Positions 7,795 to 64,000 of a stretch of 64,000 nt of DNA are shown one piece after another. The stretch lies in the NCBI GenBank assembly GCA_964523615.1, contig CAZFZU010000001.1, positions 27,063 through 91,062 of the forward strand, written 5' to 3'. The notes beneath the pieces were generated by a model. That model worked only from the letters and a program-made list of their open reading frames with translations. It did not search any database and was not told where the DNA came from. The stretch's first letter is position 1. Each line of letters begins with the position of its first letter. The stretch is from an uncultured Eubacteriales bacterium (lineage in GTDB: Bacteria; Acidobacteriota; Aminicenantia; Aminicenantales; Saccharicenantaceae). The position numbers and the translations under genes were made by a program.

Positions 7795-9768
7795 TCAGAT
7801 GATTTTGAAGCCGATGTCCTTCAGGTAATCGAACGTCGGGTCATAGAACGAGGGCAAGCGCGTCGGGTCCTCCTTGTCCCCCGGCGGCACGACGATGACC
7901 ATTCCCTGGCGGGCCCGGGTCAACAGGACCCGGTAAGCGTTCTTCTGGTATTTCTGTCGTTCCGGGTCCTTGATGTTCGTCCACTTATCGCCAAGGAAAG
8001 ATTTGTGCGCCCATCCGGAATGGGAATAACGGAAATCGGCGTCCCAAGTGATACAAGTCCAATCTAGCTCCAGTCCCTGGACGTCGAATTCCGTCGCCAC
8101 ATCTTCAAGATAGTAGGATGAGCGGACATCGTTCTTTCCATCCAGGAACCAATGGACAGGATCCGTGGGGGATTTGACAAAAATGGCATGGGGCTTGAGT
8201 CGTTCGGCCTGAGACGAAACGACGATTCCATATCGTTCTGTTCCTCTAGCCTGCCGCCGTAGCCACGTCTTAGCCTTGTCGATTTCCCGAGTGATCACTA
8301 TGGGGTATTTCCCCGTCAATTGTCCATGGGTCCAGCGCGCCGCCTCGGTTTCGCGATCGAGCAACTGCTTAACTAAGAGGGAGACGTTCTCGGCGCGGAA
8401 CGAGCGCATAGACACGGAGAGGTGAAGCGACTTCTCTTCGTTCACATGTCCCAACGGTTTCAGGCGCTCCAAGGCTCTTCCGGCATCATACTCGTTGTCC
8501 ATCAATTGCGGCGAGATGTAAACGCGCCAATCCCTGAAACGTCGTAACAGCGAATCGATCCATTCCGAGATCCCGGCCTCCCCCGTATTGATCTCCTGGC
8601 CTCCCCCTACAAGACAGATGACGACGGCCCAATCGGGGTGACGGTCGAGACATGAAATGAGGAATTCCGGTTCTGAAAACGTGAACCCAGGCGTCTTTTT
8701 CTTCCGTTTCATGAAGTCCGCGGTCTTTTGGGGAGTCCATGCGCGCTGCGCCTCATCGAAGAGGGCCACGTGATCGATCGGCGGTTTCGCGTCGATCAGG
8801 CAATCGTCCCGGAAGTGATGGACGTTCTGGATGAATGCCTTGACGCGGCTTTTCGCGTCATGTTTCTTGATCTTCTTGCCCCGGGCCTTTTCTCTCGCGA
8901 CCATATCCCTGGCCAGGGCTTCTTGCAGGATCTTCACGAGCGGGCCGTTTCCGGAAAGAAAGACGCTATGATGAGCATCGGCCGTATCGATATATTTCGT
9001 GGCGATGTTGAGTCCGACGAGGGTTTTGCCGGCCCCCGGGACGCCGGTCACGAAGCAGATCGATTTATGCCCCTGGGATTTCGACCGCTGGATGATGTCC
9101 GAGACCGCGTCAGACGTCTCCCGTAAGTTGATCGCGCCCGCGTCGCTACGGGAGATCTCAGCTACGGAATGACTTCGATAGAGCGCTAGAGCGGCTTCCA
9201 TTATAGTCGGTGTCGGGCTGTATCGTCCGGTCCTCCATATCTGCCAATCGATAGGTTCCCCTTCCGCGAAATGCAAGACATCCACGAGGGTTTGCCCGAA
9301 CAGCTCCGCGTTAGTTCTAATGGGATACAGCAGCTTGTCGTTCTGAGGCGTCATGGAGATAACGGGCATGACGGTTTTGGCGCCGGTCGCGATCAGAATG
9401 GGCGCGATGACCCGGTCATGGCTCGTTTCGTGGAAGTTCTTGAGGTCCAAGGCATAATCGGTCACTTGGTCGACGGCATATGCGGAAAAATCCTGGGAAC
9501 CCGTCTTGAATTCGAGGACGAAGATGACCGGTCCAATGATGAGGAGGACATCAATCCTCTCTCCCATGCGGGGGATCGCATATTCGAAATAGATGGCCCC
9601 TGAATAAGGGCCCAGCACCGAACGGAGGATCTGGATCTCCTCGACCCAGGCCGCACGTTGCTCGGAGGTGTCCGGGAAGTCGCTGCCGAGCGCTAGCTTT
9701 CCGACGATCTCTTCCGTTGACGTTCGGAGGAATCCGGAGATCGTGTCAGAATAATATTCGCGGTTCAC
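7795..9768 (-). CDS. DUF2075-type (Schlafen-like) SF1 helicase/ATPase with an N-terminal PD-(D/E)xK-like nuclease region
   Basis: 657 aa with Walker [11 protein letters not shown]. The C-terminal [19 protein letters not shown] block is typical of DUF2075 and UvrD-C-like proteins. The N-terminal ...[18 protein letters not shown]... looks like a D...ExK nuclease core. GC was about 53-58% in sampled lines, against ~68% in the flanks. The GTG start overlaps the upstream stop (GTGA). Confidence 0.75.
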
Positions 9769-10355
9769 TTCATCCGGTCCCGCATCTTGGCCTCGTTCTC
9801 GGAGGGCCAGTAGCCGCAGTCGAGCTCCAGGAAGACGGAGGTGTAAGGCACGGCCAGGGTCGTCTTGACCATGACGATCTTGAAGGCCTTTCCGGCTTGA
9901 TCGAGCCGGGCGATGAGCTCTTCATGGAGGACGGGCGCGGCGCCCCGGCCCTTGAGCGCCTCGTCGAGCCGCCGCTTGGCCTCGTCCGCTCCCGGCGCCA
10001 GGTCCTCGGTCACGTATCCCAGCTCCTTGTCGAGCCAGATCTTGGGCCGGATGTGCTTGGCGCCGTCGACGGCCTCGAGCACCTTCTCCAGGACGGCGAA
10101 ATGGTCCTCGCCCGTGACGATGGTCTCGATGCCGGGCGAGATCTGGAGGGGGAAGGCCGAGTCGGCTACCACGATCCAGTTGCGGTGGCCTAGGGCCGGC
10201 AGATAGGCGGCGAGCTTGTCCATCCAGGCCGGGGACGCGACGGCTTGAGCGTTGGTCATGGCGTGTTCCTCCCCTTTCGCTTCGTCCTCCTGATCACAGG
10301 CGACGAACGCCGCGAGCAGGACGGCCAATCCGACGCTCAGGAGCTTAACGCGCAC
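9765..10355 (-). CDS. RbsD/FucU (sugar mutarotase/pyranase) family protein with an N-terminal signal or lipoprotein-like peptide
   Basis: [16 protein letters not shown] and [21 protein letters not shown] resemble the LGHxDxxvvxDAxxP and C-terminal blocks of RbsD/FucU. The N-terminus is [20 protein letters not shown]. Confidence 0.55.
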
Positions 10356-56738: not shown

Positions 56739-57140
56739 ATGGCCTTCGACGACAAAGCGAAAGCCCCCGACGACGAGGCCCTCGCGAGGGGACTGGGAAA
56801 AGCCAAAGCCCTCTGGGACGAGATCGTCACCCATATCTCCGGTGAATTCGCCCCGGTCACCGAAGCCTGGGGGTTCTACAAGTCCTGGTCGCTCCGGCTC
56901 AAGCGCAAGGACCGGACCGTCCTCTATCTTCTGCCCGGCGACGGCGGGTTCCGCTGCGCCTTCGTCCTCGGCGCCAGAGCGACCGAGGCCGCCCGCAAGG
57001 CGAAACTCCCCAAGGCCGTCCTGAAGGCCATCGACGAGGCGCCCGTCTACGTCGAAGGCCGCGGCTTCCGGTTCGAGGTCCGGTCGGCCAAGGACGTCGC
57101 GACGGTCAAGACCCTGGCGGCCGTCAAGATGGCCCGCTGA
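56739..57140 (+). CDS. Hypothetical protein (possibly DUF3788-like)
   Basis: 133 aa with native codon bias. It is transcribed divergently from murJ. The family call is a weak recollection only. Confidence 0.5.
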   Translation: MAFDDKAKAPDDEALARGLGKAKALWDEIVTHISGEFAPVTEAWGFYKSWSLRLKRKDRTVLYLLPGDGGFRCAFVLGARATEAARKAKLPKAVLKAIDEAPVYVEGRGFRFEVRSAKDVATVKTLAAVKMAR

Positions 57141-57191
57141 TCCCGGCCCCCGCGAGAGGGACTCCCGGCACCCCCCGGACCTCGGCGAGAC

Positions 57192-57220
57192 TTGACAAAT
57201 ATTCTGATTTATCAGATAAT
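57192..57220 (+). promoter_or_regulatory. Sigma-70 promoter (TTGACA-17 nt-GATAAT) with embedded palindromic operator TCTGATTTATCAGA
   Basis: TTGACA lies at 57192-57197 and GATAAT at 57215-57220, a 17-nt spacer. The perfect 6+2+6 palindrome at 57203-57216 spans the spacer and the -10 element. GGAGG lies at 57251-57255 and the ATG at 57263. Confidence 0.7.
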
Positions 57221-57262
57221 TCTTATTGTTATGATTTTGCGATCACTGTAGGAGGTTCTCCC

Positions 57263-57517
57263 ATGGCCGGACGGACGAAACCCGACGACAGCTGCTGCGC
57301 GGTCGAGGCCCTGATCAGCGTCGACGAGCGCGGCCAGATGGTCCTCCCCAAGGACGTCCGGGAGGCCGCGGGCATCCGCCCCGGCGACAAGCTGGCCCTC
57401 ATCGCCTGGAAGAAGGACGGGGCCGTCTGCTGCATGTCCCTCATCAAGGCCGACGAGCTGAAGGGCATGGTCCGGGGCAAGCTCGGCCCCCTCATGAAAG
57501 ACATCATCAAATCATAA
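57263..57517 (+). CDS. AbrB/SpoVT-fold DNA-binding protein with two vicinal cysteine pairs
   Basis: 84 aa. VDERGQMVLPKDVREAAGIRPGDKLALI is a SpoVT-AbrB looped-hinge domain. Vicinal pairs are CC at residues 11-12 and 56-57. The gene lies 10 nt upstream of arsM. Confidence 0.75.
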   Translation: MAGRTKPDDSCCAVEALISVDERGQMVLPKDVREAAGIRPGDKLALIAWKKDGAVCCMSLIKADELKGMVRGKLGPLMKDIIKS

Positions 57518-57527
57518 AGGAGCGCTC

Positions 57528-58379
57528 ATGAACGACAAGGACACCCAGATCAAAAAACACGTCCGCGACCGGTACGCCCGGGCGGCCACGACCGGCTCCT
57601 CCTGCTGCGGACCGGCCGCGAGCCCCTGTTGCTGCGGTGGAACGCCGACGCCGGAGGGGACCGAGGCCAGCCGCCTGGTGGGCTATTCGACCGAGGAACT
57701 GGCGGCCATACCGGCCGACGCCGACCTCGGCCTCGGCTGCGGCAACCCGACCGCCCTGGCCGCCCTCAAATCCGGCGAGACGGTCCTCGACCTCGGCTCG
57801 GGCGGCGGCATCGACTGCTTCCTGGCGGCCCGCCGGGTCGGCCCGTCCGGCCGGGTCATCGGCGTCGATATGACGCCCGAGATGATCGACCGGGCCCGGG
57901 CCAACGCCCGCGAGACCGGCGCCGCCAACGTCGAGTTCCGGCTGGGCGAGATCGAGAACCTGCCCGTCGCCGACGCCAGCGTCGACGTGGTCATCTCCAA
58001 CTGCGTCATCAATCTCTCGACCGACAAGCCGCGCGTCTTCCGCGAGGCCTTCCGCGTCCTCCGGCCGGGCGGCCGGCTGATGGTCTCGGACCTCGCGCTC
58101 ACGAGACCGCTGCCCGAGGCGATCCGGACTTCGGTCGAGGCCTACGTCGCCTGCATCGCCGGCGCGCTCGTCAAGGACGAGTACCTCGGCGCCATCCGCG
58201 GGGCCGGGTTCCGCGACGTCCGGATCGCCGGCGAGAAGGCCTTCCCGGCCGAGCTCGTCCTCGAGGACTCCCTCGCGCCCCAAGTCGCCAAGACGCTGAA
58301 GCTGTCCCGGGAGGCGCTCGCGGAGCACGTCGCGTCGGTCGTCAGCCTGAACGTCGCGGCGACCAAACCGGCGGCCTAG
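57528..58379 (+). CDS. arsM: Arsenite S-adenosylmethionine methyltransferase
   Basis: 283 aa with a Cys-rich N-terminus (SSCCGPAASPCCCGG). LGLGCGNP, the SAM motif VLDLGSGGGID, VVISNCVINL and VACIAGA are present. Confidence 0.85.
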   Translation: MNDKDTQIKKHVRDRYARAATTGSSCCGPAASPCCCGGTPTPEGTEASRLVGYSTEELAAIPADADLGLGCGNPTALAALKSGETVLDLGSGGGIDCFLAARRVGPSGRVIGVDMTPEMIDRARANARETGAANVEFRLGEIENLPVADASVDVVISNCVINLSTDKPRVFREAFRVLRPGGRLMVSDLALTRPLPEAIRTSVEAYVACIAGALVKDEYLGAIRGAGFRDVRIAGEKAFPAELVLEDSLAPQVAKTLKLSREALAEHVASVVSLNVAATKPAA

Positions 58380-58510
58380 CGCCGGATCGCGTCCGCTCTT
58401 CTGACACGCGGCGGCGGACGTCGCCCGGGACATTCGATGGCCTTTGACACCCGGGCCGCGAGAGGATTATGCTGAGGGGAAGAATCCCAGGGGCAGGAGG
58501 ATCCCCCTCT

Positions 58511-59875
58511 ATGACAGCGGATCCATCGTCCTTCCGCGGCGAGGCCCTCTTCGAGGCCGTGCTGAACACCGTCAGCGACGCCATCACGGTCATCGACAAA
58601 GGCCTGACCGTCGTCTTCCAGAACGAGCCCGTCCGGAGGCTCTATGGGGACAAGGTCGGCGAGACCTGCTACGAGGCCTATCGCGGGCGTCAAGAGCCTT
58701 GCGAGGATTGCATGGTCTTGGATGTCATCAAGGACGGGAACCCCAGGAAGGCGCTCCGGGACATCCGCTTGCCGAACGGGAACGTCCTGTGGATGGAGGT
58801 CTTCGCGGGGCCTTATCGGGACGGGGAAGGCCGGCTCGTCGGGGCCGTGGAGGTCCATCGCAACGTGACCGAGCAGATGAGGCTCTCGGAGACCTGCGCG
58901 ACGCTGCGCCGGGAGATCGAGCGCCAGGCCCAGTTCCACAACATCGTCACCCAGTCCAAGAGGATGAAGGCCGTCTTCCGCCTCGTCGAGCGGGTGGCCG
59001 CCACGACGAGCTCGGTCCTGATCACCGGGGAATCCGGGACGGGCAAGGAGCTCATCGCCCGGGCCATCGTCTTCAACTCGGACCGGAAGGACAAGCCCTA
59101 CGTCACCGTCAATTGCGGGGCGATCCCGGAGAACCTCATCGAGTCGGAGCTGTTCGGCCATGTCCGGGGGGCCTTCACGGGGGCCGTGAGGGACCATCCG
59201 GGCGTCCTCGAAGCGGCCGACGGCGGGACGGCCTTCCTGGACGAGGTCGGCGAGCTTCCGGCCGCGGCGCAGGTCAAGCTGCTCCGCTTCCTCCAGGAAG
59301 GGGAAAGCCGCCGGGTCGGCGACACGAAGGTCCGCAAGCTCGATGTCCGGATCATCGCCGCCACGAACCGGGACCTCGAAGGGGCCGTTCGGGACGGGAC
59401 GTTCCGGGAAGACCTGTTCTTCCGCTTGAACGTCATTCCCATCGCGCTGCCGCCGCTCAGGGACAGGAAAGAGGACATCCCTCCCCTGGCCGCCCATCTC
59501 CTCCAGCGCCTCTGCGACGCGCACTCCCGGAACGTCACAGGGCTCTCGCCGGACGCCCTCAAGGCTTTCATGAATTACGACTGGCCGGGGAACGTCCGAG
59601 AGATGGAGAACGCCATCGAATATGCCCTGCACCTGACCGACGAGGGGTCGCCCATCCGCCCCGGACAGCTCCCCCCCAAGCTGCTCGCGGAGACGGAGCC
59701 CTCGGGAAATCCGGGTCCCTGCGTCTCGATCGAGGAATACGCGAAGCGGGCCATCCTCGCGCTCCAGGCGGATCATTCCGAAGAGCGGATCGCCGAGGTC
59801 CTCGGGATCAGCCGGAAGAACCTGTGGGAGAAGCGGAAGCGCTGGAACATCCCGAGATCAGGTAAGCACCCGTGA
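58511..59875 (+). CDS. Sigma-54-dependent transcriptional activator (PAS - AAA+ - HTH)
   Basis: The PAS region carries the Cys motif CYEAYRGRQEPCEDC. The AAA+ domain has GESGTGKE and the GAFTGA loop (RGAFTGA). ESELFGH is present, and the C-terminal Fis-type HTH is RIAEVLGISRKNLWEKRKRW. Confidence 0.9.
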   Translation: MTADPSSFRGEALFEAVLNTVSDAITVIDKGLTVVFQNEPVRRLYGDKVGETCYEAYRGRQEPCEDCMVLDVIKDGNPRKALRDIRLPNGNVLWMEVFAGPYRDGEGRLVGAVEVHRNVTEQMRLSETCATLRREIERQAQFHNIVTQSKRMKAVFRLVERVAATTSSVLITGESGTGKELIARAIVFNSDRKDKPYVTVNCGAIPENLIESELFGHVRGAFTGAVRDHPGVLEAADGGTAFLDEVGELPAAAQVKLLRFLQEGESRRVGDTKVRKLDVRIIAATNRDLEGAVRDGTFREDLFFRLNVIPIALPPLRDRKEDIPPLAAHLLQRLCDAHSRNVTGLSPDALKAFMNYDWPGNVREMENAIEYALHLTDEGSPIRPGQLPPKLLAETEPSGNPGPCVSIEEYAKRAILALQADHSEERIAEVLGISRKNLWEKRKRWNIPRSGKHP

Positions 59876-60074: not shown

Positions 60075-60090
60075 TGGCACACTTTCCGCA
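60075..60090 (+). promoter_or_regulatory. Sigma-54 (-24/-12) promoter
   Basis: In TGGCACactttccGCA the GG and GC elements have the exact consensus spacing (TGGCAC-N5-TTGCA). The site is 43 nt upstream of the ORF at 60133 and just downstream of the sigma-54 activator gene. Confidence 0.6.
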
Positions 60091-60132: not shown

Positions 60133-60396
60133 ATGAAAGAGAACAAGGATCAGCCGAGAAGGATCAGTACCTGCTTCGAGGGCTCGCCCTGTGCGGAGAT
60201 GATGCAGAAGATCCTGAAGGAAAGCGGCATCGGCTCTCTCTGCGAAGAGCTGATGAGGACCACGGCGAACGGATCCGGAGGAGCCCGACGGCAGCCCCGA
60301 GAAGACGAGAGGCCGGCCCGGGAGGCAGGGACCGATCAGGGCCCCCAGGCCGCCCCAAGTCCCGATAAAGATCAATATCCTGGAGGTGTGAAATGA
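60133..60396 (+). CDS. Small hypothetical protein: Cys-containing N-terminal half, disordered C-terminal half
   Basis: 87 aa with CFEGSPCAEMMQKILKESGIGSLCEELM. The stop overlaps the next ATG (ATGA). The RBS is weak. Confidence 0.4.
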   Translation: MKENKDQPRRISTCFEGSPCAEMMQKILKESGIGSLCEELMRTTANGSGGARRQPREDERPAREAGTDQGPQAAPSPDKDQYPGGVK

Positions 60397-60575
60397 TCGG
60401 ATCCCTGATGAAGCTCCACAAGTGCGCCCACTGCCCCATCCGGTGCCGGGCCTCGCGAAAGCCCCGGTCGCTCTTCGCGCGCATCCATCGCTGGCACGCG
60501 ACCTGGTGGCCCGGCTGGAAGCTGTACCAGTCGGAGCTCGGCGCCCGGACGGCCAAGGCCATGCCGCGCGTCTGA
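60393..60575 (+). CDS. Small Cys/Trp-rich hypothetical protein
   Basis: 60 aa with HKCAHCPIRC...RIHRWHATWWPGWKLY. A GGAGG RBS lies 7 nt upstream. Confidence 0.5.
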   Translation: MIGSLMKLHKCAHCPIRCRASRKPRSLFARIHRWHATWWPGWKLYQSELGARTAKAMPRV

Positions 60576-60613: not shown

Positions 60614-60985
60614 ATGAACAACACGATGAAGGAAGTCGAAACCGGCGATCCGTCCGGCGACCGCCGGCTGGGCAGGCGCCTCGATGAGATCTCCCTGGCC
60701 CTGGTCCTGGTCATGACCGGGGCGATGTGGCTGGCCCCCAAGGGGATGTTGCCCGAGGGCTCCTGGCTCGTGGGCGTGGGGCTGATCGTGCTCGGGCTGA
60801 ACGCCGTCAGGCGCCTGCGGGGCCTCAAAGCGAGCGGCTTCGGCCTCATCCTCGGTCTGATCGCGTTCGCCGCCGGGATCGGCCGCATCATCGGCCGGGA
60901 CCTCCCGATCATCCCCGGCGTGCTGATCGTCCTGGGCGTCGGACTGGTCATCAGGGCCGCGGCGCGGAGAAGAACCGCCGCTTGA
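60614..60985 (+). CDS. Small integral membrane protein (3-4 TM)
   Basis: 123 aa with a GAGGAGGA RBS. The hydrophobic segments are [40 protein letters not shown] and [15 protein letters not shown]. Confidence 0.6.
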
Positions 60986-62003
60986 AGAGGAGGGCCACGT
61001 TGACGAGGCCGATCATGACCGGCACTTCGACGAGCGGGCCGATGACGGCGGCGAACGCTTCGCCCGAGTTGATCCCGAATACCGCGACGGCCACGGCGAT
61101 GGCCAGCTCGAAGTTATTGCTGGCCGCCGTGAACGAGAGGGTCGCCGCCTTGGGATAATCCGCGCCCGCCTTCATGCTCAGGCCGAACGAGACCAGGAAC
61201 ATGACCACGAAATAGATCAAAAGCGGGACGGCGATGCGCAGGACGTCGAGCGGGATCTTGACGATGTACTCGCCCTTGAGCGAGAACATGACGACGATGG
61301 TGAAAAGCAGGGCGATGAGCGTGATCGGCGAGATCCGGGGGATGAACTTGGTCTCGTACCAGGCCTTGCCCTTGAGCTTGAGCAGGCTGAAGCGCGTGAT
61401 GAGCCCGGCCAGGAAGGGAATGCCGAGGTAGATGAAGACGCTTTCGGCGATCTGCCGCATGGTGATGTCGACGGCCGTCCCCGCCAGTCCCAGCCAGGTC
61501 GGGAAGACGGTGATGAAGAGGTAGGCGTAGACCGAGAAGAACAGGACCTGGAAGATCGAGTTGAAGGCCACCAGGCCCGCGGCGTACTCGCGGTCGCCGC
61601 CGGCCAGGTCGTTCCAGACGATGACCATGGCGATGCAGCGGGCCAGGCCGATCATGATCAGGCCATACATGTACTCCGGCTTGTCGCGGAGGAAGACGAC
61701 GGCCAGGCCGAACATCAGGAGCGGCCCGATGACCCAGTTCTGGACGAGGGAGAGCGAGAGGACCTTGACGTTCTTGAAAACGTCGCCGAGCTCCTCGTAC
61801 TTCACCTTGGCCAGGGGCGGGTACATCATCAGGATGAGCCCGACGGCGATGGGGATGTTGGTCGTCCCCGACTGGAACCGGTTGATGACGCCGACGACGG
61901 CCGGGACGAGATAGCCCAGCCCGACGCCGACGGCCATGGCCAGGAAGATCCACAGGGTCAGGTAGCGGTCCAGGAACTTGAGTCTCGGATTTCCGGGGGT
62001 CAT
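60951..62003 (-). CDS. acr3: ACR3 family arsenite efflux permease
   Basis: 350 aa from ATG 62003. [34 protein letters not shown] and [14 protein letters not shown] are hallmark ACR3 blocks. Confidence 0.9.
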
Positions 62004-62028
62004 GATCTTCTCCTTCTTCAGAACCCTG

Positions 62029-62811
62029 TCAGGGCTTGAGCCTCTCGTAGAGTGGCTTGAGCTTCGATCGGTATTTCGACCTGATGTCCTCTTCATCATC
62101 CTTCATGGGCTTGACCGGGACGAGGTCCATAACTTCCCCTGTTGGCAGCTCCGATCTAAAATAGGCTTTCGCGGCTCCGTCGACCATTCCCGCCAGGGCC
62201 TTTCGTGCGTCTTCGCCCGACAAGCCAAACCCTGCGCCAAGGAGTTCGAGCTCCTCCCATTGGAACCAGAAATAGGTCGGCCCCATGGCGGCAAGGATGG
62301 CATACGCCTCGAGATCCTTTTCGGGGACTTCCGGGCACTCACCGAGGGTCGCCAGGATTTCGCTGATCGCGGCCCCCTCCTGATTCCCCAACGCCGGGGG
62401 ATAAGTGATCGGATTATACCCGGCGCCGACGATCGACGGCGCATTGGGGATCATCCGGCAGACCCGCATGAACCCTCCCAGCTTTTCTAATATCCGCGCG
62501 CTCGTGACCTTCGGCGCGAGAGAGATCAGGACCGCATCCGGTTTCAGGGTCCCCTTGATCTCTTCGAGCGCGGCGCCGCAGGCGGGAGGATGCAGGGCCA
62601 GGAAAACAAGGTCGCACGCGGCCGGGCTTCTGTTGTTCCCGAGGACGGTCCGGGCACGGGGAGAGATCGCCCGAATGCGAGCCAGGGCTTCTTCGCTCAC
62701 GTCGCTGACGACGATCTCTGCGAACTCTTTGCCCTTCCTCCGAAACCCCTCGAGGATGATCCTGGTTATCCTTCCTCCGCCGATAAAACCGAGGCTGACG
62801 GGATCCTTCAT
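62029..62811 (-). CDS. Pyrroline-5-carboxylate reductase-like / NADP oxidoreductase (F420-dependent-type N-domain) family protein
   Basis: 260 aa. [10 protein letters not shown] is the Rossmann motif. The overall ProC-like layout is MIPNAPS...GPTYFW. The gene lies 25 nt upstream of acr3. Confidence 0.65.
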
Positions 62812-62816
62812 CGCCC

Positions 62817-63506
62817 TTACCTCCCGAAAACAAAATAGAGCCCGATGCCTATGATCAGAACTCCGGCGACTTTCTGTAGGATGCCGTGGGCTTTGCGCAG
62901 GCCTTTCGATTCGAGCAGGCCCTTCGCAGCGCCGACCGATGTTCCGGCGACGAGCACCAAGGCCGAATGCCCCAGCGCATAGACGAAGAGCAGGAAGCCC
63001 CCGTAAAGGATGTTCCCTTTCTCGGCCACGAAGGCCAAGAGCACGGCCAGAATAGGCACGGCGCACGGGGTCGAAACGACGCCGAAGAGCAGGCCCAGCA
63101 GGAAGGCTCCGATATGCCCCCGTTTCTTGACCTTGAGGCCGGACGGAACAGGAAGGCTCAACCTGAGAAGACCTAGAAGGTGAAGCCCCATCAGAAGACA
63201 GACTGCCGCGACGAGATACTCCCAGAACGGACCGATATTGCCGAACATCCTTCCCATCAGGGCCGAGATGAGCCCGAGCGCGGTGAAAGTAACGGCCAAG
63301 CCCAGGACAAAGAAAAGCGAGAAGATGAGCGAGCGCTTGAGCGTCGTTGTCTCCTTGTTCCCGGCGACGACGCCCATCAGGAGCGGGATCATGGCCAGAA
63401 CGCAGGGATTCAGGGCGGTCGTCACGCCTCCCAAGAAGACAGCGACGATGGCCAGCCAAGGGCTGTGCTGAAGGAGGGCCGAGATGTCGCCGAAGAGATT
63501 CTCCAT
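62817..63506 (-). CDS. ccdA: Cytochrome c biogenesis protein CcdA / DsbD-core thiol:disulfide electron transporter
   Basis: 229 aa with 6 TM segments. The two conserved Cys lie in TALNPCVLAMIP and VVSTPCAVPIL. Confidence 0.85.
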   Translation of the reverse strand: MENLFGDISALLQHSPWLAIVAVFLGGVTTALNPCVLAMIPLLMGVVAGNKETTTLKRSLIFSLFFVLGLAVTFTALGLISALMGRMFGNIGPFWEYLVAAVCLLMGLHLLGLLRLSLPVPSGLKVKKRGHIGAFLLGLLFGVVSTPCAVPILAVLLAFVAEKGNILYGGFLLFVYALGHSALVLVAGTSVGAAKGLLESKGLRKAHGILQKVAGVLIIGIGLYFVFGR

Positions 63507-63517
63507 CTCGCCTCAGA

Positions 63518-64000
63518 TCACTGGATGCCGTGCTTCTTCAGGAGCTCGAGGATCTCCTCTTTGGGAAAAAGACCGACATGGCGGGCGATCTCCTTTCCCT
63601 TTTGGTCCAGGAAGACCTGGGTCGGGATGAGCTGGATGCGGTATTTCTCGCCCGGCTTGGGGTCCTTCCAGACGTCGTAGAAGACGACCTGGACCCGGTC
63701 GGGGAACATGGCGGCGATCTCTTTCATGATCGGCTGCATCTTCTTGCAGGGGATGCACCGGTCGGCGCCGAGCTCCAGGAACGTCACCTGGTATTTCGAG
63801 AAATCGATGTCCAGCCGGTTCGTGGCCAGGACCTCTCCTCTGGCCGCGTAGAGAGGCGGTTGGGATTGCCCGGCGGCCTCCGGCCCCGCGGCCGCCGGAG
63901 AGGGACCGGACACCCTTTGACCCCCGCTCGACGCGTTCGCGCCTCCGGCGATCAGGACGAGGGCCAGGACCGAGGCGGCAAGAACGATCTTCTGTCTGCG
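63518..64000 (-). CDS. Membrane-anchored or secreted thioredoxin-family protein (5' end outside window)
   Basis: The CxxC active site lies in GADRCIPCKKM, with a thioredoxin-like fold block IPTQVFLD. The frame stays open to nt 64000 through a hydrophobic segment (IVLAASVLALVLIAGG), so the start is probably beyond the window. Confidence 0.8.
   Translation of the reverse strand, partial: RRQKIVLAASVLALVLIAGGANASSGGQRVSGPSPAAAGPEAAGQSQPPLYAARGEVLATNRLDIDFSKYQVTFLELGADRCIPCKKMQPIMKEIAAMFPDRVQVVFYDVWKDPKPGEKYRIQLIPTQVFLDQKGKEIARHVGLFPKEEILELLKKHGIQ

Follow-up and report, generated by a model that had tools for sequence, protein, structure and literature searches.

The locus described here lies in a stretch of 64,000 nucleotides (nt) of contig CAZFZU010000001.1 from an uncultured bacterium (the window) and comprises two genes on the plus strand: an HgcC-family gene (57263-57517), which encodes a protein of 84 amino acids (aa) with an AbrB/SpoVT fold, and arsM (57528-58379), which encodes an arsenite S-adenosylmethionine methyltransferase of 283 aa. 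The former was recognized with NF040962, PF04014, an AlphaFold2 (AF2) model and Foldseek, the latter with NF008823 (355.5 bits, cutoff 263) and Methyltransf_31 (1.4e-40). Direct inspection of the region 56900-58500, together with a consensus scan, placed a -35 hexamer TTGACA at 57192-57197 and a -10 hexamer GATAAT at 57215-57220, both on the plus strand. With their 17-nt spacer, these hexamers match the sigma-70 promoter at 11 of 12 positions; promoter-like sites in the 2-kb region number three, compared with 0.1 expected from shuffles. A ribosome-binding site, AGGAGG (57250-57255, plus strand), was read 7 nt ahead of the ATG at 57263. A second one, AGGAG (57518-57522, plus strand), lies inside the 10-nt gap that precedes the arsM ATG at 57528, indicating that the two genes are cotranscribed and form a translationally close pair. 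The original prediction, made from the same DNA, had described a near-consensus promoter TTGACA-17 nt-GATAAT, a GGAGG ribosome-binding site, a SpoVT/AbrB-domain protein of 84 aa and a canonical arsenite methyltransferase 10 nt downstream, and all of these elements stood up to direct reading and to the domain searches. An Rfam scan of 56900-57700 for leader RNA elements gave no credible match.

The 84-aa protein matches the NCBIfam model NF040962, "HgcAB-associated protein HgcC", with 120.4 bits (cutoff 70), its residues 11-80 aligning end to end with profile positions 1-70 of 70. The AbrB domain is detected above threshold by both PF04014 (31.7 bits, gathering threshold 24.7) and TIGR01439 (36.7 bits, cutoff 28.3). 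Its sequence places it in a family that already has a name, HgcC. It consists of an N-terminal tail with C11 and C12, an AbrB core, a last beta-strand with C56 and C57, and a C-terminal helix (residues 63-83). The core motif from D21 to R33 reads DERGQMVLPKDVR, and the AbrB signature residues D21, R23, G24, Q25, P29, K30 and R33 are invariant or nearly so in the family alignment. A profile of 61 diverse members searched against the PDB matched only the DNA-binding domains of AbrB, SpoVT, Abh and Sso7c4. The AF2 model of the monomer (pLDDT, the predicted local distance difference test, 85.9) contains a helix at 30-36, a hairpin at 44-62 and the C-terminal helix at 63-83; Foldseek ranks 1-17 are occupied by C68, SpoVT, Sso7c4, AbrB-N, Abh and MazE, with probabilities of 0.8-1.0 and E-values of 0.03-0.6.

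The family is large: clustering at 90% identity gives 6,956 clusters (E<=1e-3), and of the 459 representatives at 50% identity, 222 have an E-value below 1e-10. The organism of the window is a bacterium of the Aminicenantes type; a close relative, from an Aminicenantes metagenome-assembled genome (MAG; L001), is 94% identical in the 84-aa protein. Automatic annotation labels homologues "antitoxin PrlF" or "AbrB family", the former being used by JGI for many of them. A 2023 paper noticed a prlF/AbrB gene upstream of hgcA in archaeal methylators, flagged the HgcC-family gene as a possible regulator of hgcAB and proposed regulation of the toxin-antitoxin type (PMC10349881). Of eight confirmed methylators reported there with the prlF gene ahead of hgcA, six are archaea. 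Full-text searches of the accessible literature found no report of the linkage of the HgcC family to arsM, of its Cys pairs, of an operator or of a functional characterization, and searches for "HgcC" as a term returned only unrelated papers. The original prediction had stated that no characterized example was known; literature searches likewise found none, but the family itself had already been named (NF040962) and noticed (PMC10349881). No open reading frame (ORF) with the HgcA cap-helix motif was found in the 64-kb window, where the gene downstream is arsM.

We examined the genomic context of the family in 80 species-level loci, chosen as the closest to the ArsM-linked query, 77 of which were assessable for the downstream gene. 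They come from Aminicenantes, Nitrospirota, Chloroflexota, Syntrophales, Desulfobacterota, Zixibacteria, Methanomicrobiales, Methanothrix, Methanosarcinales and further groups. Directly downstream, in the same orientation, lies a gene for ArsM in 49 of the 80 loci and for HgcA in 24; two loci have a frameshifted ArsM or HgcA gene, two have another gene and three are ended by the end of the contig. Counting the frameshifted genes, arsM follows in 50 and hgcA in 25 of the 77 assessable loci, 75 in all. HgcA was called by its cap-helix motif, and eight of eight sampled proteins pass NF040863 (339-458 bits, cutoff 275). Several loci are mixed: hgcC-hgcA-(hgcB)-acr3 in L054, hgcC-arsM-...-hgcA in L069, and hgcC-arsM-acr3 in L003 and L192. 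In these four loci arsenite efflux and mercury-methylation genes are found behind one type of leader gene. Rare homologues lack an adjacent arsM or hgcA (L021, L070 and L140); their downstream ORFs encode proteins of 705 aa, 1024 aa with an FAD-oxidase-like N-terminus, and 745 aa (a membrane protein).

Direct reading of the ORF at 57263-57517 places cysteines at positions 11, 12, 56 and 57, exactly as predicted. Among representatives at 50% identity, C57 is retained in 134, C56 in 118, C12 in 108 and C11 in 82 of 151 aligned rows, in an alignment of 150 representatives (151 rows) that includes fragments and is poorly alignable at the N-terminus. A Cys-Cys pair after the AbrB core is present in 72 of 73 locus proteins. 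The N-terminal tail carries two to four cysteines across loci: 48 of 49 ArsM-linked proteins have the N-terminal pair, and HgcA-linked proteins have CC or CxC...C. Both pairs are kept in homologues linked to ars genes, the conservation on which the original prediction had staked its proposal of a cysteine-based sensor. Alignment to AbrB and SpoVT puts C11 and C12 just before beta-strand 1, and C56 and C57 in the last strand of the barrel. Vicinal Cys pairs are poor ligands of iron-sulfur (Fe-S) clusters and classic ligands of As(III), methylarsenite (MAs(III)) and Hg(II).

Between the -35 hexamer and the ribosome-binding site, positions 57201-57236 contain four in-register 9-bp units of the form WW-TCWGA-WW (W, A or T), namely ATTCTGATT, TATCAGATA, ATTCTTATT and GTTATGATT, a predicted operator array. 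Their cores start at 57203, 57212, 57221 and 57230, read TCTGA, TCAGA, TCTTA and TATGA, and score 18 of 20 core positions; units 2 and 3 overlap the -10 hexamer. At this score the four-unit array is unique in the window, where the next best scores 15, and when the AT-rich 73 nt around it were shuffled 100,000 times, no shuffle scored 18. The operator had originally been described as the palindrome TCTGAT-TT-ATCAGA. This palindrome is indeed perfect (57203-57216), occurs only once in the 64 kb and extends into an inverted repeat at 57198-57221, but it is not a simple palindromic operator, being units 1 and 2 of the 9-bp-phased array. Taken alone, with two mismatches allowed, it gave one match window-wide against 0.92 expected, which is not significant. 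We rejected a chance palindrome because of the four-unit array and its conservation across phyla. A search of the window for further operators (TCWGA-N4-TCWGA with up to one mismatch) gave three matches against 3.4 expected, two of which are this same site, and thus identified no additional operator.

Nearly every homologue is preceded by two to five copies of the 5-bp palindromic core TCWGA with A/T flanks (unit WWTCWGAWW). The 120 nt upstream contain on average 2.26 cores; dinucleotide shuffles give 0.35 (at most 0.51), and windows with matched AT content from the same loci give 0.26. At least two cores are present in 69 of 78 loci. Successive cores are spaced by 9 (58 times), 18 (28 times) or 27 bp (5 times). 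Within 733 kb of fetched loci, 57 of 62 TCWGA-N4-TCWGA pairs fall within 330 nt upstream of the gene. Other exact pairs were judged to be chance occurrences, one inside an RtcA-like ORF (L057) and one about 300 nt from tilS (L005). The perfect cores of bacterial loci start 8-40 nt downstream of the first base of the TTGACA hexamer, which places them over the spacer, the -10 hexamer and the transcription start; TTGAC[AT] also lies upstream of the array in 50 homologous loci. Archaeal loci have two cores, then a TATA-like box in the next 9-bp slot, then a further core. Between L001 and the window, the promoter and the first unit are conserved and the flanks diverge.

The presence of the array goes with that of the hgcC-family gene and not with that of arsM. 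The control set consisted of 72 assessable arsM loci related to the window arsM, 21 with an hgcC-family gene and 51 without. The best three-unit score was 12-14 in the loci with the gene versus 8-12 in those without (Mann-Whitney p = 1.7e-11), and an exact TCWGA pair was present in 10 of 21 and 0 of 51, respectively. Four loci without the gene scored 12, with no array-like appearance on inspection. An ArsR (HTH_5) gene lies directly ahead of arsM in 8 of the 51 loci without an hgcC-family gene; both regulator types therefore use the same slot. A trans-acting factor predicts that an array should also stand before an unlinked target, and such an array was found in a Syntrophales MAG (L011) in which hgcC heads hgcA-hgcB. 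Here a second TTGACA with an array (9385-9440) precedes arsM (9501-10079), 3.3 kb downstream of hgcC-hgcA-hgcB, and this arsM has no adjacent regulator gene, an arrangement suggestive of a single regulon that includes both methylation systems. When the whole collection was scanned for three phased units, at least 120 loci were found; 20 of the matches listed lie immediately upstream of hgcC genes, and no further regulon members were revealed among the matches listed. The scan matches away from hgcC (L081-L200, for example L095, L167 and L176) are mostly perfect 9-bp tandem repeats inside ORFs. They encode tripeptide repeats (for example N-Q-N or S-D-L), especially in Bacteroidota, and are false positives for operator searches.

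One claim of the original prediction, the absence of any ArsR gene from this arsenic island, did not hold. A hidden Markov model of ArsR built for this analysis found no ArsR-like ORF inside the window, but the island does encode a canonical ArsR (ELCVCEL), some 2.2-2.6 kb past position 64000. Its gene is on a public contig (L281) whose sequence matches window positions 61635-64000 with 100% identity and runs on beyond the window end. The island extension (L281 1-5990, minus strand, window-equivalent about 64003-69500) was reconstructed from exact-protein look-up and family matches. Its gene order is MarR, ArsP_1, a small ORF, radical SAM/SPASM, ArsR (HTH_5, ELCVCEL), LMWPc ArsC, ArsP_1 (493 aa), Thioredoxin_3 and thioredoxin, followed by the DsbD_TM, P5CR-like and acr3 genes of the window. 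With a canonical ArsR just outside the window, the HgcC protein is best regarded as an additional, methyltransferase-specific regulator and not as a replacement of ArsR; that ArsR is encoded in the same island argues for a possible difference in the threshold or the species to which an HgcC sensor responds. An ArsR-like protein is encoded within 6 kb in 8 of the 80 hgcC loci (L001, L002, L021, L038, L043, L064, L073 and L076), so coexistence of both regulator types is not unique to the window genome.

The remaining genes of the island show several further features. On the minus strand, 60951-63913 holds an unusual series of genes, for a thioredoxin, a DsbD_TM-like membrane protein with a weak ArsG-like match, a P5CR/F420_oxidored-like protein and, last, acr3; as called, the P5CR-like ORF overlaps the acr3 start by about 70 nt. 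No array was seen at the promoter of the acr3 operon, which lies beyond the window. An AT-rich TTGACA promoter is found ahead of the radical-SAM gene of L281, with no TCWGA array there. A gene for a PAS-AAA+ sigma-54 activator (58469-59875) is located between arsM and acr3. A candidate sigma-54 promoter, TGGCAC-N5-CCGCA (60075-60090), in a low-GC gap was rejected as not significant window-wide. Past this site lie two small ORFs whose products contain cysteine (60133-60396 and 60394-60575), and an ORF for a membrane protein at about 60615-60985 without a family match.

We propose that the window protein is an HgcC-family repressor of the hgcC-arsM operon that is released by a thiol-bound metal(loid), and we assign this statement a probability of roughly 60%. 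This value combines two parts: that the protein is a DNA-binding autoregulator of arsM acting at the TCWGA array appears highly probable, and that a thiol-bound metal(loid) is the inducer is an evenly balanced proposition. In this model, an AbrB/SpoVT protein with a swapped hairpin would repress its own two-gene operon, symmetric dimers each occupying one 5-bp palindromic TCWGA core. With two to five cores 9 bp apart, several dimers would coat the promoter from the -35/-10 spacer over the -10 hexamer and the start, blocking RNA polymerase; in archaea, dimers would flank the TATA box. Neighboring dimers would be joined, probably via the C-terminal helix with its conserved LGP. The Cys-rich N-terminal tail is predicted to abut the first beta-strand beside the DNA-contact loop, and binding of a thiophilic metal(loid) to the tail and to the nearly invariant C56 and C57 would release the protein from DNA and switch the methyltransferase on. 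We infer that the window protein itself, and no other factor, binds the array, that it represses, that its cysteines bind the inducer, and what that inducer is.

The ligand at this locus is most likely arsenite or methylarsenite. This is the most economical guess because ArsM is the target, because some relatives have acr3 in the operon as well, and because an ArsR-like protein in the equivalent position in Pseudodesulfovibrio mercurii is responsive to arsenic and regulates hgcAB (bioRxiv 10.1101/2022.10.17.512643). In archaeal methylators, the "prlF/AbrB" gene stands where P. mercurii has the ArsR-like one (PMC10349881). The family-wide link to hgcAB keeps Hg(II) as a candidate ligand. The original prediction of an arsenic-responsive repressor on an AbrB fold thus survives in part: a dedicated arsM repressor is strongly supported by synteny, the Cys pairs, the gene-linked array and the occurrence of ArsR in the same slot, but here it would not take the place of ArsR.

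Several points weigh against this proposal. A second arsenite sensor is not obviously needed, since a canonical CVC-type ArsR is encoded in the same island, and MAs(III), Hg(II), redox state or S-adenosylhomocysteine (SAH) might act as inducer instead. The 2:1 ratio of ArsM to HgcA partners is biased because the 80 loci are the nearest to an ArsM-linked query. ArsM- and HgcA-linked proteins do not separate: mean identity is 0.64 within and 0.63 between the classes, which led us to reject a split into ArsM-type and HgcA-type clades and makes the partner gene uninformative on the ligand. The 9-bp period is off the helical repeat, and we know of no precedent for it among AbrB-type proteins. Finally, for every member of the family we infer DNA binding, repression and ligand alike.

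The alternative that survives best retains the repressor and changes its signal to thiol redox, sulfide or polysulfide, an Fe-S cluster, oxygen, or a methyl-cycle metabolite such as SAH; on balance we consider it unlikely but not negligible. In ND132, ArsR2 precedes hgcAB, and the ArsR-like regulator of hgcAB responds to SAH too (10.1101/2022.10.17.512643). A different signal would also fit the presence of at least four cysteines per 84 aa in strict anaerobes (Aminicenantes, methanogens, Syntrophales and Nitrospirota), the fact that the window genome already has an arsenite-type ArsR for its detoxification operon, and the use of one regulator type for two chemically different methylation systems. 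However, the partners are almost exclusively ArsM and HgcA and not redox or sulfur enzymes, and acr3 belongs to the same operon in L003, L054 and L192. At 84 aa the protein is too small for a domain binding S-adenosylmethionine or SAH, and its vicinal pairs, as is generally known for such pairs, would suit As(III), MAs(III) or Hg(II) better than an Fe-S cluster.

We regard as improbable that the protein is instead an ArsD-like metallochaperone whose vicinal cysteines pass As(III) or Hg(II) to ArsM or to HgcA/HgcB, with some other factor binding the repeats. Its gene is immediately upstream of, and probably translationally close to, that of one of the two metal(loid) methyltransferases, ArsM itself has an N-terminal CC-rich segment, and the Cys pairs resemble C12-C13 of ArsD and the C-terminal CC of HgcB (HgcB of L011 ends in ...TCCS), motifs whose roles are general knowledge. 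On the other hand, the protein has the fold of DNA-binding domains, its closest solved relatives are DNA-binding domains without exception, the AbrB DNA-contact loop is invariant, and the array tracks the hgcC-family gene and not arsM, no exact pair being present in the 51 arsM loci without the gene. The arsM gene of L011, which retains an array in the absence of an adjacent hgcC copy, is more readily explained by a diffusible regulator than by a stoichiometric chaperone. The roles of chaperone and regulator could coexist in one protein.

That the protein is a type II antitoxin of the MazE/PrlF kind autoregulating a toxin-antitoxin module, as automatic annotation and an earlier paper (PMC10349881) suggest and as the name of PF04014, "MazE_antitoxin", and the many JGI labels "antitoxin PrlF" would imply, is effectively refuted: no locus has a toxin-like partner, with ArsM or HgcA downstream in all but two of the assessable ones; no toxin gene is adjacent in the window, where arsM follows at +10 nt and the gene upstream, for a DUF3788 protein, recurs in this place in the closest relative only; the Pfam match spans the generic AbrB domain only; and the antitoxin models score well below their cutoffs (PrlF NF007429, 16.4 bits versus 125; doc_partner, 16.4 versus 55.9). 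A cognate toxin, which the original prediction had named as evidence that would overturn its proposal, was thus found nowhere among these loci.

Comparison with characterized systems helps to place the family. The HgcC proteins of NF040962 have the same size, AbrB core and Cys pairs as the window protein, and 25 of 80 relatives are arranged as hgcC-hgcA(B); the window and 50 of the 80 loci, however, have arsM and not hgcAB as the partner, and the family name carries no function. Members of the ArsR/SmtB family occupy the same first-gene slot of arsM and hgcAB operons, and like them the HgcC protein is small, putatively autoregulated, endowed with vicinal thiols and associated with a predicted operator over its promoter. 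ArsR proteins with vicinal cysteines include those of A. ferrooxidans (C95/C96/C102), C. glutamicum (ArsR1, C15/C16/C55) and Shewanella (MAs(III)-selective, C101/C102). The differences are equally clear: HgcC is a predicted swapped-hairpin beta-barrel with no match to HTH_5 (PF01022) or HTH_20 (PF12840), whereas ArsR is a winged helix; its putative operator is a 9-bp-phased array of 5-bp cores, whereas that of ArsR is an inverted repeat of the 12-2-12 type; and HgcC coexists with a true ArsR in the island of the window.

The N-domains of AbrB, SpoVT, Abh, Sso7c4 and MazE are the best sequence and structure matches and share the motif D-x-x-G-x-h-h-h-P-x-x-h-R, but they lack conserved Cys pairs, and the C-terminal part of HgcC is a single helix with a conserved LGP. 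To our knowledge, the AbrB domain itself does not sense small molecules or metals in these proteins. The sites bound by AbrB show no sharp consensus; the HgcC family, in contrast, has an invariant TCWGA core. The phased repeats are reminiscent of MraZ, which has tandem AbrB-like domains and binds direct repeats of TGGGN spaced by 10 bp. As is generally known, MraZ likewise combines an AbrB-type fold with short phased repeats over its own promoter and represses its own operon; unlike HgcC, it has two domains, forms rings, uses 10-bp repeats in one orientation, lacks cysteines and a ligand, and serves the dcw regulon. ArsD, a metallochaperone with C12-C13-C18 that historically was also called a trans-acting repressor, is likewise small and encoded in ars operons, and its N-terminal vicinal cysteines are numbered almost as in HgcC, but it has a thioredoxin-like fold and the ArsA ATPase as its partner. 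The window protein gave no match to the ArsD Pfam model, and arsA was not seen among the island genes scanned. Judged from sequence, HgcC would work like ArsR in its slot and logic without being one, as a putative metalloregulator whose scaffold and operator architecture are both new. Somewhat more tentatively, at a little under even odds, the HgcC family may comprise the first AbrB-fold metal(loid) sensors, with one TCWGA operator in bacteria and archaea placing arsM and hgcAB under one signal and sometimes in one regulon (L011, L069).

The control of hgcAB expression and the purpose of these genes are open questions in mercury biogeochemistry, and how anaerobes regulate arsM is just as poorly understood. 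One regulator family shared by both gene sets, with a predicted operator that is easy to recognize, turns these into directly testable questions, and the operator may be used as a marker of co-regulation in MAGs. The widespread mis-annotation of HgcC-family genes as "antitoxin PrlF/MazE" is corrected. If arsM and hgcAB are indeed under one signal sensed by this family, hgcAB would natively be part of an arsenic or soft-metal response, and the family would offer a compact and portable pair of sensor and operator. If the thiol-sensor model holds, HgcC would represent a new structural class beside ArsR/SmtB, MerR, CsoR, CopY, Fur, DtxR and NikR, and the evolutionary link that has been proposed between the methylation of arsenic and that of mercury would be strengthened.

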